Source: Candidatus Dasytiphilus stammeri
GTDB lineage: Bacteria > Pseudomonadota > Gammaproteobacteria > Enterobacterales > Enterobacteriaceae
Assembly (NCBI GenBank): GCA_041941865.1
Contig: CP145873.1
Span: 171,752-235,751, forward strand
Reading direction: 5' to 3'
DNA: 64,000 nucleotides
The notes below the pieces were generated by a model. That model did not search any database, was not told the DNA's origin, and saw nothing but the letters and a program-made list of their open reading frames with translations. The translations under genes and the position numbers were made by a program. Below, piece by piece: positions 2,073 to 63,539 of the stretch; position 1 is the stretch's first letter, and the number at the start of each line of letters is the position of its first letter.

Positions 2073-2300
2073 ATGCCCATTATAAAAGTTCGTGATAATG
2101 AACCATTTGATGTAGCACTTCGACGTTTTAAGCGTTCTTGCGAAAAAGCAGGTATATTATCGGAAGTTCGTCGAAGAGAATTTTATGAAAAACCTACTAC
2201 TCAACGAAAACGCGCAAAAGCATCTGCTATTAAAAGACTTTCTAAAAAATTATCACGTGAACAATCACGACGTATACGTATACATTATATTAAATCATAA
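2073..2300 (+). CDS. rpsU: 30S ribosomal protein S21
   Basis: [42 protein letters not shown] is near-identical to E. coli S21. A GAGGAAG Shine-Dalgarno sequence lies at 2061-2067. Confidence 0.97.
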
Positions 2301-2350
2301 ATATTTATTTATTAATTATGAAAAATTTTTTAATAGCGTAGAGTTAGTCA

Positions 2351-4107
2351 ATGTTTCGACATATTCCATATTCATTTATTCAAAATTTATTAAGTCATAT
2401 TGATATAGTAGAACTTATTCAATCTCATTTATCCTTACAAAAGGTAGGAAAAAATTATCGATCATGTTGTCCTTTTCATAAAGATAAAAATCCTTCCTTT
2501 ACAGTGAGTAGAGAAAAACAATTATTTTATTGTTTTGGATGTCGTGAGCATGGTAATTCTATTGATTTTATTATGCATTTTGAAAAATTAAATTTTATTG
2601 AAACAATTGAAGAATTAGCTAAGATTTATGGTTTTACAATTCCATACGAATCTAGTGATTTATTATCTAATTTTACTATTCAGCGTCGAGAATATTTTTT
2701 TAAGATGATGCAAATCATATGTGAATTGTATCAAAAATCTTTATTGCATAAAACTCTCAACGCTATTCAAGCTAGAGAATATTTGAAAAAAAGAGAGATT
2801 AATGGTAAAATTATTCAAGAATTTTCGTTAGGTTTTGCTCCTTCTAGTGGAACTACAGTAAAAAAATATTTTGAACAATATTATCCTAACGATATTCATT
2901 TGTTAAAAGAATTAGGAATTTTATCTATAAATGAAAAAAATGATTTTTTTATAAATAGGATAATGTTTCCAATTCGAGATAAAAGGGGAAGAGTTATGGG
3001 TTTTGGAGGAAGAATATTAAACGATTTTCATTCCAATACTAAATATTTAAATTCTCCTACTACAAATATTTTTAATAAAGGAAAACAATTATATGGATTA
3101 TATGAATTATATAAGAAATGTGCTAAACCTTCTAAAATTTTAGTAGTAGAAGGTTATATGGATGTAATTTCTTTGGTAAAAAATGGTATTGAGTATACAG
3201 TTTCTTCATTAGGAACATCAACATCAATAGATCATATTCAACTTTTATTTCGTAATACGGATAATGTTATTTATTGTTATGATGGAGATCATGCAGGAAG
3301 AAAAGCTGCTTGGAAAGCACTCAATATAGCATTACCATATATGGTAGACGGACGACAATTAAGTTTTATGTTTTTACCTGAAGGAGAAGATCCTGATAGT
3401 TTAATACGTAAAGAAGGAAAAAATCTTTTTGAAAAAAGAATATTACGTGCTTATTCTCTATCCGAGTTTATATTTCAATTTTTTTTACAACAGGTAAATA
3501 TTTCTACTGCTGAAGGTAAAGCTAAATTTATTACCTTAGTGCGACCCTTAATTAATAAGATTCCTAGTAAAATATTACAGTTTTCTATACAATCGGTTTT
3601 AGGTAAAAAATTAGGTTTCTTTGAGTCAAAAATATTCAAATTAATATATAATTCAACATTACCCAGACTAAAATCTTCTAATATTTTATATATAAAAAAA
3701 AAAGAAGTAAAATGCGAATACTGCTAAGTTTATTAGTACAAAATCCACATTTTTCATTATTAGTACCAGAATTAACATTTTTAAATAATTTGAAAATAAA
3801 TGGATGGAATATTTTTGTAGAACTAGTAGAACAATGTAAAGCTTGTCCTAAAATCACTACTGGATATTTATTAGAACAATACCGAAATAAAAATTTAATA
3901 AAAACTCTTGAAATATTAGCTTATTGGGACCACATGATTAATGATGAATATTTAGAAAAAACATTTCAAGATTTACTAACTAGTATCTATGAATGTGCTT
4001 TACAACAACGTCAAGAAAAACTGCTTTCTGGAGAAAGAACTCAAGGATTAACTATTGAAGATAAACATGAGTTATGGTTTTTAAATAAAACGTTAGCAAA
4101 AAAATAA
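2351..4107 (+). CDS. dnaG: DNA primase DnaG, interrupted by a frame change at an A10 tract (ORF 2351-3727 = zinc-finger/TOPRIM core; ORF 3712-4107 = DnaB-binding C-terminal domain)
   Basis: The N-terminal ORF carries CCPFHKDKNPSFTV..YCFGC and EGYMDV. The second ORF, MRILLSLLVQNPHFSLLVPEL...LWFLNKTLAKK, aligns with the E. coli DnaG C-terminus (MRTLIGLLVQNPELATLVP...LWTLNQELAKK). Together they give ~580 aa, against 581 aa in E. coli. Confidence 0.9.
3694..3703 (+). repeat. A10 homopolymer at the dnaG frame break (candidate transcriptional-slippage or -1 frameshift site)
   Basis: Sequence is tatAAAAAAAAAAgaag. The second frame is open only from 3682 and the first frame stops at 3727, so the frame switch must occur within 3682-3727. 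One extra A joins the two ORFs as IKKKRSKMRILL. Confidence 0.8.
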
Positions 4108-4225
4108 ATATTAAAAAAAATAAATATTTAAGGATATTGAAAATATTTTTACAAAAAATGATTGATGATTTATCAGAATTTTGATTATTTCTATTTTCGA
4201 TAAACTTTATGATGGATATTATCTT

Positions 4226-4375
4226 ATGAATTATAATTTTTAGTATCAATTAAAAAGTCTTGTTAGTTTCTGGAGAGAATAAGGATATTTAACATATGCG
4301 GAAATAAATAAGTATCTTTTACAGTCAAAATTCAATATCAATTATATTATAAATATAGTTCCATTCATTAATAAG
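4226..4375 (+). other. rpoD: rpoD 5' segment (sigma70 region 1.1 equivalent), in frame with the rpoD ORF but carrying two nonsense codons (TAG 4241-4243, TAA 4280-4282)
   Basis: The translation is [48 protein letters not shown]. It aligns without gaps to E. coli RpoD residues 1-50 (MEQNPQSQLKLLVTRGKEQGYLTYAEVNDHLPEDIVDSDQIEDIIQMIND). Confidence 0.75.
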
Positions 4376-6025
4376 ATGGGTATTCCAGTTATGGAAAAAA
4401 AACCAGATGAAAATATACAGTTATTGAAGAATATTTCAACTACAAAAAAAAATAAACATGTCAAAATCATTGTTGAAGATAATAATAAAAAAGATCTTAC
4501 AACAGATCCCGTTCGGATATATATGCGAGAAATGGGAAATGTAGAATTATTAACACGTGAAGGAGAAGTGGATATCGCTAAACGTATTGAAGAAGGATTT
4601 AACCAAGTTCAATCTTCATTAGGTGAATATCCTGAAGTAATTTCATCTTTTTTGTACCAATATGATCAGTTAAAAAGTAATAATCTGAATCTTAAGGATC
4701 TAATTATAGGTTTTAAAGATACTGAAATAGTAACAGTGCCTACAAAAATTAAAATGACTAATAATTTTTTAGCTAAACATAAAGATCTAGATAAAGTGCT
4801 AGATTATGAAAATAATATTGATCCAGTGGTTGCATGTAAAAAATTTACTACCTTGCGAGATCAATATGAAAAAACTTCTGCAATAATTAATAGTAAAGGT
4901 CGAGAACATAGTGATTCTGTTCAAGAAATAAAAAATCTATCAGAGATATTTAGTACATTTAGGTTAATGCCTAAAATTTTTATTCAATTAGTAAAAAATA
5001 TCCGTTCTATTATGGAGAAAATTCGTGTACAAGAACGTATAATTATGAAACTTTGTGTAGATCAATGTAATATGCCTAAAAAAATTTTTATTTTCTTATT
5101 TACTGGTAATGAAAGTAATGAAAATTGGCTCAAAAATGCCTTATTAAGAAAGGATCGTTGGGCAAAAAATTTACATAGAGTTACTACTAAAATAGTCACT
5201 AGTCTTCAAAGTTTAGTAAAAATTGAAAAAGAAACAGGTTTAAGTATTGAAAATATAAAAGATATTAATCGACGGCTGACAATTGGTGCAGCAAAAGCAG
5301 GTAGAGCAAAGAAAGAAATGATTGAAGCAAATTTACGTCTAGTCATTTCAATAGCTAAAAAATATTCCAATAGAGGACTTCAATTTTTGGATATTATTCA
5401 GGAAGGAAATATTGGATTAATAAAAGCTGTAGATAAATTTAATTATCGTCTTGGATATAAATTTTCTACGTATGCTACCTGGTGGATTCGACAAGCTATA
5501 ACTCGATCGATAGCAGATCAAGCTCGTACTATACGTATTCCAGTACATATGATCGAAACTATCAATAAATTAAATAGAATTTCTCGTAAAATGTTACAAC
5601 AAATAGGTCGAGAACCTACATCAGAAGAATTATCCGAACAAATGTTAATGAGCGAAGACAAAATTCGGAAAGTATTAAAAATTGCAAAAGAACCTATTTC
5701 GCTAGAAACTCCAATTGGAGAGAATGCTAATTCTCATTTAGGCGATTTTATTGAAGATACTAATATTAAAATGCCTTTTGAATGTGCTAGTTATGATAGC
5801 TTACGTTGTTCAACTCAGTTAGTATTAACGGGATTACCTACCAGAGAATGTCAAGTATTAAAGATGCGTTTTGGAATTAATTTGAATACAGATCATACTT
5901 TAGAAGAAGTAGGAAAAAAATTTGATGTCACACGAGAACGTATAAGACAAATAGAGGCAAAAGCATTACGAAAATTGCGGCATCCAAGTAGGGCTGATAT
6001 TCTAAAAGATTTTTTAGAAGATTAA
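4376..6025 (+). CDS. rpoD: RNA polymerase sigma-70 factor RpoD (intact ORF starts at the equivalent of E. coli Met51)
   Basis: 549 aa. Regions 1.2-4 are highly conserved: [97 protein letters not shown]. Confidence 0.93.
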
Positions 6026-6059: not shown

Positions 6060-6132
6060 GGCCCTTTAGCTCAGAGGTAAGAGCAGGCGACTCATAATCG
6101 CTTGGTCGCAGGTTCAAATCCTGCAAGGGCCA
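6060..6132 (+). tRNA. ileX: tRNA-Ile2 (anticodon CAU, lysidine-dependent; ileX-like)
   Basis: Cloverleaf: GGCCCTT/AAGGGCC acceptor, GCTC/GAGC D stem, CTCATAA anticodon loop, GCAGG-TTCAAAT-CCTGC T arm. It is near-identical to E. coli ileX and sits right after rpoD as in E. coli. The 3' flank is TTA, so no CCA is encoded. Confidence 0.9.
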
Positions 6133-11149: not shown

Positions 11150-12175
<1,026 letters not shown>

Positions 12176-13101
12176 TCAACATCAATTATTTGATTTTTAA
12201 TATCCGTTATAATTAACTGAAATAATATTAATAATTAAATTATTTTGAATAAAAAATATTCTGAAAATATTATAGGATTAATATTAATCAAATTATAGTT
12301 ATAAAATTCATTTTTCCTTTCCAAAATATAGAAAAATTTTTTCCATCCACTGTTTGGATATCATATAATTTATAGTTTTCATACATAAGTTAAATACAAT
12401 ATTATAAATTATTTAAATTTATTGATGTTTCATCCTAATAATTCATCAATATTGGAGAAAATATGATCTCAATCATATTGATAATCATTGATTAAGCAAA
12501 AATATTTCTCAAAAGAAAAAATTTTACAAATACGTAATAATTCAATAGATTTAAGTTAGTAAAATTTTTTAGTTATCTTCTGAACAAAATTTGTGAAAAA
12601 TATTATTTAATCATTAATTAATATTTTTTTACTTTATTAGCAATAACTATTTCCTATAATAAATCTGCTGATATTACGATAAAGTAAATTAAATACTAGG
12701 ATGAACTGATTCAGTTAATTTTTGATACTGATAATTATTATCTAAAACTGATAATTTTCTATTATCCACTTTAATAGTTAGTTAATTTCTAATTGTTAGG
12801 ATGAAAGATATTATCTAATATTCAGACGTATCATATTGTATGAGTCCTAAAATAAATTTGTTATGATACTTAAGAAAATTATTAACATAACCATTGATTA
12901 CATTTGATAATTTTATCTTAAATAATTATGATTATTTTTTATAATAGTTATTTTTAGTGACAATGAAACATGATAATTACGTTATTACCATTTTGTACTG
13001 TATTTTAGTTTTTGACATTATAATTTATCTTTCACTATCGCAATAAATTCCATTTATTTGTTTTATAAAAATTTTCCATAAAAAGATTAGAGGATTCATT
13101 T

Positions 13102-53768: not shown

Positions 53769-53816
53769 GAAATTCTTTATTATTAATTTTATTTTTGATC
53801 ATATCCATTATTATTT

Positions 53817-54514
53817 CTATGATAGAAAATGAACATTATTCAATTTGTTGTAGTCCAGTTTAACTAGTAATATTAATTTATCTCCAATAATATCTAAACT
53901 TACAACTACTTCATTTATTTTCCAAGTAGAACTTAAGTTCATTGCAATATTTCAATATATTTTTATAAAAATGGTACTTATTCAGATATTCCTCCCAAAA
54001 AATTATTGAGAATTTATCCTCCAGGTCAAATTCTTGCTAAGAAAAATTCATTATACTTCTTTTCCATCTTCAAGTGGAAAAATAATATCTGAATATATTC
54101 AAAAAAACTTATATAGTTTTTTGTTTGTTACTAAACTAGCAGTAATTACATGAGTTTAATAAGAATGAAATATTTATTTCATTACATTCCCGTCAACTCA
54201 GGATTTGATTAATTATTAAAGTGATTATTTTTGCGATCGTTCAAGAATATTATTTTCATAAATAAATTCTGAGTTTACAGGAAGATATTTTCGTATGAAA
54301 ATAATATTCAAATATTTAATATTATTATTACCAAAGGAATCAAATTAATATTTGAGAATAGAAATAGTTCTTCTTTCATAAGCAATTTCATGTTAGAAAT
54401 ATATGTTCTGGATTTTCATATAAATTTTTTTTAAATTTTGTCATTAATATAATCGTCAAAGAGTAAACCTAGTTTCTTTTTTTAGTTTATATTAAAATAT
54501 CTAATTTTTATCAT
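53817..54514 (-). pseudogene. gshB: Glutathione synthetase gshB pseudogene (one frameshift in an A7 run, ~17 in-frame stops, several small deletions)
   Basis: Manual minus-strand translation gives MIKIRYFNIN* (frame A), then frame B: KKETRFTL*RLY**QNLKKIYMKIQNIYF ... NIIFIRKYLPVNSEFIYENNILERSQK* ... SLVTNKKLYKFF*IYSDIIFPLEDGKEV**IF ... SSTWKINEVVVSLDIIGDKL ... *. This is collinear with E. coli GshB (MIKLGIVMDPIANINIKKDSSFAMLLEAQRRGYELHYMEMGDLYL ... DVILMRKDPPFDTEFIYATYILERAEEKG ... TLVTRNKAQLKAFWEKHSDIILKPLDGMGGASIF ... ESDWKI...GLDIIGDRL). It sits in the expected syntenic slot upstream of ruvX. Confidence 0.75.
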
Positions 54515-54800
54515 TTATTAGTATTCAATAAATGATTTTTCTTCCATATTATTTTTCATAATTATTTATTAATGTTACACTATTGTCTTCTGTATTTATT
54601 ATGAGTATTTAATGTATTTGATAAGGAGTCTCAATGAAAACTCCTCCTTTAGGTTATCTTTATTAAAAAAATAATTAAAATATTTTTAAATTTTACTCTC
54701 AATTAAACCAATATTATGAACTACCAACTTTTTCAATGAAAATTTTCTAAAATTCATTAAATTACTTTAACTAATACATTACTATGTAATATTTACGTAT

Positions 54801-59829: not shown

Positions 59830-60213
59830 GGTTGAATATCCTTAATTGTTTTTTTAAAAAAAAAAGTATGCAGTATTGTTTTAGTTTATCAATTTTCTTT
59901 TATAAGATACAATAATATTTTGATGGATAAAAATTATTATTTAATATCAGAAATACAATTATTCATAATTAGTTATATACTTTTTAGACAAAATTCTTTC
60001 AAAGACATTAAATAACTTTTTTTCCTCCAAGAGTAATTATAACTTAATCAATATTAGTAATTATTTTACATGAATTAATAATAAAATTATAGAAAATTAT
60101 TAATTTTTCTTTACACTAAAAAAATTAATAAAAATATATGTTAAGTAATATAATATTAATTATGTTAGTGTAAATAGTTCAATTTGTTTAATACAAGAGA
60201 TTATAAATTTTTC

Positions 60214-63039
60214 ATGAAAAATGATTTTAAATCAACATTAAATCTTCCTACCACTAATTTTTCAATGCGAGCAAATCTTGCTCAAAAGGAACCTAAGATA
60301 CTTCAAAAATGGGATCAAGATAATCTTTATCAATTAATTCGTTCTGCTAAAAAAGGAAAACCGTTATTTATTCTTCATGATGGTCCTCCATATGCTAATG
60401 GATCTGTTCATATGGGTCATGCAGTGAATAAAATTCTTAAAGATATTATTATTAAATCAAAAGGTTTATGTGGTTTTGATTCCCCATATATTCCTGGGTG
60501 GGATTGTCATGGATTACCTATTGAATTAAAAGTAGAACAAATTTTAGGAAAACCAGATCATAATACAGTAACAGCAGAAAATTTTAGACAAGCCTGTCGT
60601 TCATATGTAATAGAACAAGTTAATATTCAAAAACAAGATTTTATCAGAATGGGAGTAGTAGGAGATTGGAAAAATTCATATCTGACTATGGATTTTTCTA
60701 CTGAAGCTAACATAATAAGATTATTAGCAAAACTAATTTCTCAAGATTATATTCTTCGAGGTTATAAACCAGTATATTGGTGTATTAAATGTGAATCTGC
60801 ATTATCAGATGCAGAAGTAGAATATGAAGTAAAATTTTCACAGGCTATTGATGTAGTTTTTTATGTAAAAAATAGAGAAAAAATTAAATCTATATTTAAG
60901 GTAGATAATGTTATAGGTCCTATTGGATTAGTTATTTGGACTACTACTCCATGGAGTTTACCAGCTAATAAAGCAGTGGGAGTTCATCATGATGCATATT
61001 ATCAACTAATACAAATTACAGATAAGGCTATAATTATAGCCAAAAATTTAAGAGATCAATTTTTACATCGCATAAATATCCAGAACTGGAAAGTCATAGG
61101 GGAAGTTTCTGGAAATGAACTAGAATACCTTCACTTACATCATCCTTTTATGAATTATGATATTCCTATAGTATTATCCAACCATGTAAGTTTAAAAGAT
61201 GGAACTGGAATTGTGCACATAGCTCCCAGTCTTGGACTAGAAGATTATATAGTTGGATGTAATTATCAACTTAATTTAGCAAATATAATTGAACCTAATG
61301 GTACCTATAAATATAATACTTATCCTGATTTAGATGGCATTTTAATATTTCAAGCTAATCCAATTATTATAAATATTCTCCTCAAACAAAAAATTTTATT
61401 AAAAATAGAAAACATTCAGCATAGTTATCCCTATTGTTGTAGACATAAACAACCTATTATTTTTCGTACCACTAGTCAATGGTTTCTTAATATAGAACAC
61501 CAACAGCTCCGAAAAAATTTAGTAAACCAAATAAGTAAAATACAATGGCACCCCAAATGGGGAAAAAATAGAATGAGTAATTTACTGACTTCTAGACCAG
61601 ACTGGTGTCTTTCTCGACAACGTACTTGGGGGATTCCATTGCCTTTATTTATTAATCCAAATAATGGACAGTTACATCCAAATACTTTATCTATAATAGA
61701 TAAAGTAGCAAAATCAGTAGAAGATAAAGGTATTCAAGCTTGGTGGGATTTAAGTACTGCATCTTTAATAGGAGAAAATGATGCTCAAAAATACATAAAA
61801 GTATTAGATACGCTGGATGTATGGTTTGATTCTGGTTCTACTCATATAAATTTTTTAACAAAATTTTCTCACCAACCAAAAATAGAGCAGGTAGATCTTT
61901 TTTGTGAAGGGTCTGATCAATATCGAGGATGGTTTATGTCTTCCCTAATAATTTCTACCATTATAAATAATCAAGTACCTTGTAAAAATATATTAACACA
62001 TGGTTTTGTAGTAGATAGTCAGGGAAAAAAAATGTCTAAAAGTTTAGGTAATACTATTAGTCCTAAAGAGATAATGAATAAATTTGGTAGTGATATTCTT
62101 AGATTATGGATTGCGTCTACAGATTATACTCGGGAAATAGTTTATTCTCAGGAGAGTATTAATCGTTCTATAGATATTTATCGTCGTATTCGTAATACAG
62201 TACGTTTTTTATTAGCAAATATAAATGATTTTGATCCTAATATTCACCTAGTAAAATTACAAAATATGATAGGATTAGATCGATGGATGCTCGAAAAAAC
62301 ACAAATTACCCAAGATAATATTATTACTGCTTATGAAAATTATGACTTTCATAAAGTAGTTCAAAATTTAATGCAATTTTGTTCATTAGAACTTGGTTCT
62401 TTTTATCTAGATATAGTTAAAGATAGACAGTATACTAGTCAAAAAAATAGTTTATTACGACGTAGTGGTCAAACCACTATGTTCTATATACTAGAATTTA
62501 TGGTACGATGGTTAGCTCCTCTTATATCTTTTACCGTAGATGAAATCTGGGGTATGATTCCTGGAAAACGATCTAAATATGTATTTACAGAAGAATGGTT
62601 TTCTCAATTATATTTTAATCAAGATAATTTTATTGATACTTCTTTCTGGAAAGATTTAATTATTATTCGTAATGAAGTGCACAAAGTTCATGAATTAATG
62701 CGAGCTAATAACAAAATTAAGGATTTATTATCTTCAATAATTATATTATATGTATCTGACTTAATAGAAGAAAAATTAAAAAAATTAGGAGAAGAATTAA
62801 AATTTTTTTTAATGACTTCTAATACGAAAATTTTAACTTATGATCTAGCTCCAGAAGGAGCATATACAAGCGATAAAATAACAAATTTAAAGTTTATTTT
62901 ATATAATGCTCCAGGTAAAAAATGTCTGCGTTGTTGGCATTATACAAAAGATATAGGAAAACATGTTAATTTTCCTGATATATGTAGTCGATGTGTAATA
63001 AATATAATAGGACCAGGAGAAACACGTTTTTTTGTATGA
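60214..63039 (+). CDS. ileS: Isoleucine--tRNA ligase
   Basis: MKNDFKSTLNLPTTNFSMRANL starts at ATG 60214; the listed ORF begins at a TTG ten codons upstream. It has PPYANGSVHMGHA (HIGH), KMSKSLGN (KMSKS) and a C-terminal Zn-binding CxxC pair. Confidence 0.96.
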   Translation: MKNDFKSTLNLPTTNFSMRANLAQKEPKILQKWDQDNLYQLIRSAKKGKPLFILHDGPPYANGSVHMGHAVNKILKDIIIKSKGLCGFDSPYIPGWDCHGLPIELKVEQILGKPDHNTVTAENFRQACRSYVIEQVNIQKQDFIRMGVVGDWKNSYLTMDFSTEANIIRLLAKLISQDYILRGYKPVYWCIKCESALSDAEVEYEVKFSQAIDVVFYVKNREKIKSIFKVDNVIGPIGLVIWTTTPWSLPANKAVGVHHDAYYQLIQITDKAIIIAKNLRDQFLHRINIQNWKVIGEVSGNELEYLHLHHPFMNYDIPIVLSNHVSLKDGTGIVHIAPSLGLEDYIVGCNYQLNLANIIEPNGTYKYNTYPDLDGILIFQANPIIINILLKQKILLKIENIQHSYPYCCRHKQPIIFRTTSQWFLNIEHQQLRKNLVNQISKIQWHPKWGKNRMSNLLTSRPDWCLSRQRTWGIPLPLFINPNNGQLHPNTLSIIDKVAKSVEDKGIQAWWDLSTASLIGENDAQKYIKVLDTLDVWFDSGSTHINFLTKFSHQPKIEQVDLFCEGSDQYRGWFMSSLIISTIINNQVPCKNILTHGFVVDSQGKKMSKSLGNTISPKEIMNKFGSDILRLWIASTDYTREIVYSQESINRSIDIYRRIRNTVRFLLANINDFDPNIHLVKLQNMIGLDRWMLEKTQITQDNIITAYENYDFHKVVQNLMQFCSLELGSFYLDIVKDRQYTSQKNSLLRRSGQTTMFYILEFMVRWLAPLISFTVDEIWGMIPGKRSKYVFTEEWFSQLYFNQDNFIDTSFWKDLIIIRNEVHKVHELMRANNKIKDLLSSIIILYVSDLIEEKLKKLGEELKFFLMTSNTKILTYDLAPEGAYTSDKITNLKFILYNAPGKKCLRCWHYTKDIGKHVNFPDICSRCVINIIGPGETRFFV

Positions 63040-63539
63040 AAAATATTAATTTTTATTTTCCTTACTTATGGATTATATCCAGTATATTTTGTATAGATTT
63101 TTTTAGTAAACAATGGATTAAATATTATTTTAATTTGAAAGAAAAAGTATGGTTTTATCCTGAAATTAATATTTTATATACTTCTCATTATGGTAGTTTT
63201 TTTAGTTATTTAGTAGCTAAAAATAAATTTCTCTATTGGTTTTGGATAATAATTATCCTATTTATTATAATATTATTACTAATAATCATTGCTAGAAATT
63301 CCAATAACCTGGATTATTTCTGGAATAATATAGCTTTAGCACTAATAGTTGGTGGTGGATTAAGTAATTTATCTGATCGTATTATATACGGATCTGTAAT
63401 TGATTTTATTCATTGTTTTATTATGAAATGGAATTTTTTAACCTTTAATATCGCAGATATATCTATTTGTATAGGTGGATTTTTAATGATTTTATTAGAG
63501 ATAAAATTTAATCTCTATTTATTGACGAGAAGAAGTTAA
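63036..63539 (+). CDS. lspA: Lipoprotein signal peptidase II
   Basis: Start taken at ATG 63036 (an ATGA overlap with the ileS stop), giving 167 aa against 164 in E. coli. [19 protein letters not shown] and FNIADISI motifs are present. Confidence 0.9.

Follow-up and report, generated by a model that had tools for sequence, protein, structure and literature searches.

The 64-kb stretch of DNA analyzed here (the window) comes from the 440,755-bp genome of a 'Candidatus (Ca.) Dasytiphilus stammeri' strain and carries rpoD, the gene for the housekeeping sigma factor. Dasytiphilus is a tyrosine-supplementing bacteriome symbiont of dasytine beetles, and its published strains (n = 20) have genomes of 437-601 kb (PMC11191362). 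The G+C content of the window is ~27%. An intact rpoD open reading frame (ORF) of 549 amino acids (aa) is preceded, in the same frame, by 50 codons that correspond to the beginning of full-length rpoD and contain two stop codons. The features of the locus are as follows, where L082 is the closest relative.

4202..4225, + strand: original translation-initiation region of ATG 4226, 20/24 identical to L082 and with a start-like folding energy.
4226..4375, + strand: remains of the three-helix bundle of sigma-70 region 1.1 (rpoD codons 1-50), in the frame of the ORF, with no insertions or deletions (indels) and two stops.
4241..4243, + strand: TAG at codon 6, which is CAG (Gln6) in E. coli and relatives.
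4280..4282, + strand: TAA at codon 19, which is CAA (Gln19) in E. coli and relatives.
4376..6025, + strand: intact rpoD ORF, 549 aa plus stop, comprising regions 1.2, NCR, 2, 3 and 4, with its presumed start at the Met51 equivalent.
4376..4498, + strand: codons 51-91, the linker of region 1.1, formerly acidic and now lysine-rich, still in the ORF.
4391..4393, + strand: second in-frame ATG in the sequence (Met56 equivalent), a candidate alternative start.

The original prediction held that the 50 upstream codons are a gap-free, in-frame remnant of region 1.1 and that the stops lie at Gln6 and Gln19, each one C-to-T change away from a glutamine codon. Translation, alignment and profile matching bore this out. 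In a MAFFT alignment with nine full-length RpoD sequences, the 50 codons showed no gap. When X was placed at the stops, these 50 residues by themselves matched Pfam PF03979 (Sigma70_r1_1) with 23.8 bits (E = 4.3e-5; gathering cut-off, 22.5 bits), and the score was 46.4 bits (E = 3.8e-12) when Q was placed at the stops and downstream residues were included. By these comparisons, the similarity of the remnant to region 1.1 is confirmed to be far above chance. The E. coli RpoD N-terminus given in the original prediction was exact, and the E. coli rpoD sequence, like that of L082, encodes Gln6 by CAG and Gln19 by CAA. Both glutamines are invariant in 20 intact relatives. A single C-to-T transition accounts for each stop (CAG became TAG at codon 6, and CAA became TAA at codon 19); in an AT-driven genome, no change is more common. 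Both nonsense mutations close the frame opened by the ancestral ATG 4226.

Other details of the remnant were also recorded. Codons 3 (4232-4234) and 40 (4343-4345) read TAT, where the relatives have CAA and CAG, respectively. Either replacement takes two changes, through a stop (TAA or TAG) or through CAT, so a stop may also have been an intermediate at further Gln codons once the region was no longer translated. Inside the dead part, AAGGA (4281-4285), a good Shine-Dalgarno-like motif, lies 10 nucleotides (nt) 5′ of an out-of-frame ATG at 4296 that opens a three-codon ORF (MRK and a stop). This pair is probably meaningless; it could capture ribosomes 5′ of the new start. As for a frameshift route around the stops, none was apparent: ATG 4210 and ATG 4213 both reach a TGA within seven codons. 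A scan of 3900-4600 for promoters and terminators was uninformative, with 7 promoter-like sites compared with 6.0 +/- 2.4 in shuffled sequence.

ATG 4376, the conserved Met51, is the first ATG, GTG or TTG after the second stop, and the frame running from it to 6025 is the only one left open. The 549-aa ORF scored above the cut-offs of the Pfam families r1_2 (47.7 bits), ner (172.5), r2 (77.7), r3 (95.1) and r4 (62.9). Sigma70_r1_1 gave no match in the ORF itself and was found only in the upstream two-stop remnant; among the 118 RpoD relatives listed, it is present in all but one 566-aa entry. The nearest RpoD proteins are those of Dasytiphilus (606-612 aa, 68-72% identity), and all of them have region 1.1. 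A search via PepA homologues found nothing nearer than the 71-73% clade in the protein collection. In a contig scan with RpoD, matches to HMIETINK, a motif that is conserved universally, predominated; the scan yielded free-living relatives of at most 62% identity only, and no sister strain.

Region 1.1 is composed of a three-helix bundle plus a flexible linker (PMC4496709). An AlphaFold model of a relative, P0002, agreed with this description, with helices at residues 3-19, 24-31 and 38-50 followed by disorder up to region 1.2; the model was poor overall (mean pLDDT 51) and was used only for residues 1-60 (pLDDT 60-78). Because the three helices lie within residues 3-50, a start at Met51 would remove the entire folded domain.

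In the AT-rich rpoD, dS estimated by NG86 was saturated or unreliable, and our conclusions were based on dN, on counts at conserved sites and on the decay of G/C to A/T at each codon position, not on dN/dS alone. Relative to L082, codons 1-50 had a dN of 0.341 and the linker one of 0.671, compared with 0.150 for the rest of the gene, where dN/dS was ~0.27. When pairs of intact genes were compared, codons 1-50 evolved no faster than the rest. The comparison of codons 1-50 with the rest of the gene among relatives, which the original prediction had proposed as a check, indicated relaxed selection. At sites on which three Dasytiphilus relatives agreed with each other and with five outgroups, free-living or other, the window had changed at 11/29 (codons 1-50) and 6/14 (linker), compared with 34/325 for the rest (Fisher p = 2.6e-4). 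Among columns invariant in the 20 intact relatives, the corresponding counts were 6/19, 3/8 and 20/272 (p = 0.0035), which leaves 252 of the 272 invariant columns kept in the rest of the gene. The six invariant residues changed in codons 1-50 are Q6stop, S7Y, G16W, Q19stop, V27I and D29K.

From codon 92 onward, G/C-to-A/T decay at codon positions 1, 2 and 3 was 17%, 11% and 61%, respectively. The values were 62%, 38% and 67% in codons 1-50, and 52%, 50% and 67% in the linker (codons 51-91), indicating that replacement sites throughout region 1.1 drifted at approximately the rate of near-neutral third positions. Negative charge is the hallmark of region 1.1 (PMC7641759). Its net charge is -12 to -15 in the Dasytiphilus relatives and approximately -20 in free-living relatives, compared with +6 here (+3 in codons 1-50 and +3 in the linker); for the linker alone, the relatives range from -7 to -12. 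The charge shift per residue in region 1.1 was ~10 times that in the rest of the protein. As judged from these patterns of replacement, the results show that the whole of region 1.1, both the cut-off codons and the translated linker, evolved close to neutrally in this lineage, and that regions 1.2 to 4 were under strong purifying selection.

The reading that best explains the locus, to which we give a probability of about three in four, is that rpoD encodes a 549-aa sigma factor that would start at the Met51 equivalent (ATG 4376) and lack the whole three-helix bundle, the N-terminal domain of the housekeeping sigma having genuinely eroded. It was the first of four explanations offered in the original prediction. 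The cell would make this protein from Met51, or possibly from Met56, with a short basic N-terminal tail and no folded region 1.1. By analogy with engineered E. coli sigma-70 lacking region 1.1, whose behavior has been described (PMC4496709, PMC7641759, PMC12478191), autoinhibition of DNA binding would be gone and the sigma would bind promoter DNA without core. It is also predicted to bind core RNA polymerase more tightly and to be retained during elongation, and its open complexes would be more stable, with slower isomerization at some promoters. RpoD, which the original prediction called the sole primary sigma, is not the only sigma factor, given that the published gene table of Dasytiphilus lists rpoH, together with rpoD, dnaG, dksA, prfA and prfB, in all strains, and has no entry for rpoE or spoT (PMC11191362). 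In the part of the orthogroup table available to us, a single rpoD row gives one rpoD gene per strain. In a symbiont with rpoH as the only alternative sigma and little regulation left, the predicted changes would be tolerable and plausibly neutral, and such neutrality would explain the relaxed selection.

Several points weigh against this reading. The start at ATG 4376 is presumed from the sequence. The mRNA folding energies at ATG 4376 (-7.8 kcal/mol) and ATG 4391 (-8.3 kcal/mol) are like those of internal ATGs (median -6.8 kcal/mol). Real starts have a median of -4.1 kcal/mol, and only 9% and 7% of them are as low as or lower than ATG 4376 and ATG 4391, respectively. The old start, ATG 4226, resembles a real start (-5.3 kcal/mol), and the last 24 nt 5′ of it are still conserved at 20/24 positions compared with L082. 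It is also somewhat unexpected for a long-dead sequence that no indel has occurred in 150 nt and that GYLTYAE is kept (7/7). Finally, the deposited NCBI annotation apparently lacks any rpoD protein. The neighboring RpsU and PepA are NCBI proteins WWO97141.1 and WWO97142.1, and from these consecutive accession numbers we infer that there is no protein for either dnaG or rpoD.

The lack of a Shine-Dalgarno motif at ATG 4376 is no objection, because about half of the genes in the window also lack one. The spacer farther upstream contains many indels compared with L082 (118 vs 172 nt). Judged by this spacer, a stretch of 150 nt would have gained only ~2 indels along the entire branch, and finding none is weak evidence. 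A history of long relaxation followed by comparatively late stops is mildly favored by three features: the frame is intact, the region of the old start is conserved, and the new start is 'internal-looking'. In a first phase, region 1.1 would long have been translated though its sequence no longer mattered, and frameshifts would have been purged because everything downstream was essential. In a second phase, the C-to-T nonsense mutations would have arisen comparatively late. The opposite order, in which an early truncation made the linker useless, accords with the equal decay of codons 1-50 and the linker; it fits less well with the preservation of the old start region and the unadapted state of the new start.

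Among the alternatives to a 549-aa sigma, the one that survives best is that the stops are very recent or polymorphic lesions and that the domain was fully functional up to their appearance, the truncation being transient and mildly deleterious and not an established loss of region 1.1. The run of 150 nt without an indel, the retention of GYLTYAE, the conserved and start-like old initiation region, and the absence of start-like features at the new start are all in its favor. We nevertheless regard it as unlikely, because first-position G/C sites of codons 1-50 have decayed at the near-neutral rate of third positions, 6/19 invariant residues, including G16W and D29K, have changed, and the charge of region 1.1 is reversed. 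The still-translated linker is equally decayed, so the relaxation of the domain is old, and both sequencing runs were identical over 5.5 kb. The second explanation in the original prediction, very recent lesions, therefore stands in part: the stops may be fairly recent, but selection on region 1.1 was relaxed during most of the separate history of the lineage.

Read-through by a suppressor tRNA, a near-cognate tRNA-Gln or a changed code, the third explanation, would yield a full-length sigma with region 1.1, and is less probable still. Both stops are at Gln codons in a frame that extends over all 50 codons, and TAG is rare, being found at 1 of the 47 ORF ends in the window (TAA, 41; TGA, 5). 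However, both TAA and TAG serve as genuine terminators there: TAA ends 41/47 ORFs, and yidC, which is terminated by TAG, ends at profile position 538 of 545, a natural C-terminus. A scan of the 64-kb window found no suppressor among its three tRNAs (Met/Ile-type CAT, Leu CAA and Gly GCC). All 20 Dasytiphilus strains are listed as having the genes for RF1 and RF2 (prfA and prfB), and two serial stops would multiply two small probabilities. The codons concerned show no purifying selection, so even a read-through product would lack a working region 1.1. A changed code or efficient suppression is very unlikely.

That rpoD is a wholly dead pseudogene, with sigma function supplied otherwise, is hardly credible. 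In-frame stops near the 5′ end and the apparent lack of an rpoD protein record would be in keeping with it, but relaxation is limited to codons 1-91 and does not extend to the whole gene. Downstream of codon 91, the retention of invariant residues (252/272), the low dN/dS and the codon-position pattern of decay (17/11/61%) all speak for a working gene. Pfam regions 1.2 to 4 are all present, 549 codons run uninterrupted in a 27% G+C genome, and rpoD is essential in Enterobacteriaceae (PMC11481867).

Sequencing or assembly error, the last explanation in the original prediction, has nothing in its favor except that both stops are single-base differences from the ancestral codons, and it can be practically dismissed: the locus in the Logan assemblies of runs SRR27829355 (88-kb contig) and SRR27829354 (28-kb contig), Logan assemblies being the only source from which the exact 549-aa protein is known, is identical to the window with both stops included, so that two runs and three assemblies agree, and errors cannot explain the many other lineage-specific replacements that surround the stops as heavy independent decay.

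The synteny of rpsU and dnaG at 2073..4107 identified the locus as the rpsU-dnaG-rpoD operon, whose upstream genes are as follows.

2073..2300, + strand: rpsU, upstream operon gene.
2351..3727 plus 3712..4107, + strand: dnaG, upstream operon gene, split at a poly-A run.

The gene order in the window is tsaD / rpsU / dnaG / rpoD / tRNA / tRNA / pepA / valS. The order tsaD / rpsU / dnaG / rpoD / pepA / valS matches that in three Dasytiphilus genomes, so that rpoD was found to be both orthologous and syntenic, and the adjacency of dnaG and rpoD is also seen in E. coli.

The split dnaG (2351-4107) consists of two overlapping ORFs, one of 458 aa with the zinc ribbon and Toprim and one of 131 aa with the DnaB-binding domain, and the frame breaks at an A10 run (3694-3703), at the linker between the two parts. 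Three Dasytiphilus genomes that are ~30% diverged share this frameshift in both site and direction, in runs of A9 or A10 (L082, ~4416-4424; L083, ~4413-4422; L084, ~4417-4425). This sharing among diverged genomes makes the dnaG split look maintained. For the frames to be joined, the mRNA would need one extra A, or the ribosome would have to slip by -1 on A AAA AAA. Separate synthesis of the two parts is the other possibility, given that ATG 3712 encodes the conserved Met of KR..MRIL. Conserved frameshifts in poly(A) tracts have been described in endosymbionts (PMC5009743, PMC3017870).

An Rfam search of the window returned the three tRNAs and nothing else. The tRNA adjoining rpoD (6060-6132, + strand) was called tRNA-Met with anticodon CAT by ARAGORN. 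In E. coli, a tRNA-Ile occupies this position, shortly downstream of rpoD and mug, and the tRNA in the window is probably a lysidine-modified tRNA-Ile2 instead of a Met tRNA. Unlike in E. coli, mug is absent downstream of rpoD in the window. Elsewhere in this otherwise dense genome, two segments of ~1 kb each (12158-13101 and 53769-54800) have no ORF of at least 60 aa and no Rfam match, and are probably decayed pseudogene remnants. The genes ileS (60184-63039) and lspA (62991-63539) overlap by 49 nt (62991-63039) in different frames and are two genes, not one split gene.

No part of the primary sigma is less well understood than region 1.1. Its roles have been defined mostly through engineered truncations in vitro: it autoinhibits free sigma, acts as a gatekeeper of the DNA cleft, tunes the stability of open complexes, and takes part in the response to DksA and in sigma release. 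The window offers a natural experiment, a gammaproteobacterial lineage probably without the folded domain in which the other sigma regions are strongly selected, and it suggests that region 1.1 is dispensable where regulation and sigma competition are minimal. Its particular value lies in the legible dead codons and in the availability of ~70% identical sister proteins with region 1.1 for comparison. Automatic annotation seems to call rpoD a pseudogene and the published table counts it as present; neither records the missing domain. The case is of interest both for the mechanism of sigma factors and for genome decay in symbionts.

N-terminal truncations of sigma-70 were reportedly studied earlier by Dombroski and colleagues. 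Engineered E. coli sigma-70 lacking region 1.1 belongs to the same family as the window sigma, and the folded N-terminal bundle lies within its deletion (PMC4496709, PMC7641759, PMC12478191). Those proteins are laboratory constructs characterized mostly in vitro, whereas the truncation in the window is natural and affects the only housekeeping sigma of a living symbiont. The predicted window protein also keeps part of the linker, although in a basic form. A housekeeping sigma that naturally lacks region 1.1 is found in Bacteroidetes (sigma-ABfr; PMC6847099). There, the lack is an ancient, phylum-wide state, accompanied by altered promoter recognition (-33/-7) and the absence of an NCR, and not a recent decay.

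Gene erosion in obligate insect endosymbionts, as described in PMC3164680, includes AT-biased C-to-T stops, shortened essential genes and remnants in spacers, and erosion is ongoing in Dasytiphilus (PMC11191362). The window differs from this general erosion in that a defined regulatory domain of the transcription machinery has been lost and the rest of the protein is strongly selected. Our literature search found no paper on the loss of region 1.1 in insect endosymbionts. The finding is the erosion of a domain of an essential gene in a reduced symbiont; the decay is genuine, but of a fairly ordinary sort, and does not amount to a new kind of system.

A precedent came from an exhaustive profile search with the 549-aa protein, which found the RpoD of Ca. 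Annandia pinicola (P0303, WP_226798925.1, 531 aa, 348.6-kb genome). An AT-rich homologue, P0333 (616 aa), is also without a detectable region 1.1. The Ca. Annandia pinicola RpoD has no r1_1 match and begins with a lysine-rich tail of ~37 aa, with region 1.2 at residues 38-68 compared with residues 44-74 in the window protein. It is 49% identical and belongs to an independent lineage, which was compared by protein alone; in the window, the dead codons are still readable and the loss has been caught midway. The two lineages appear to have reached the same RpoD architecture independently. We tentatively raise the possibility, which we consider doubtful, that loss of region 1.1 is a repeatable and possibly advantageous late step of genome reduction in enterobacterial-type insect symbionts, leaving RNA polymerase permanently sigma-bound with unusually stable open complexes on AT-rich, degenerate promoters. 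If so, this genome would show the step in progress, independently of Ca. Annandia pinicola.

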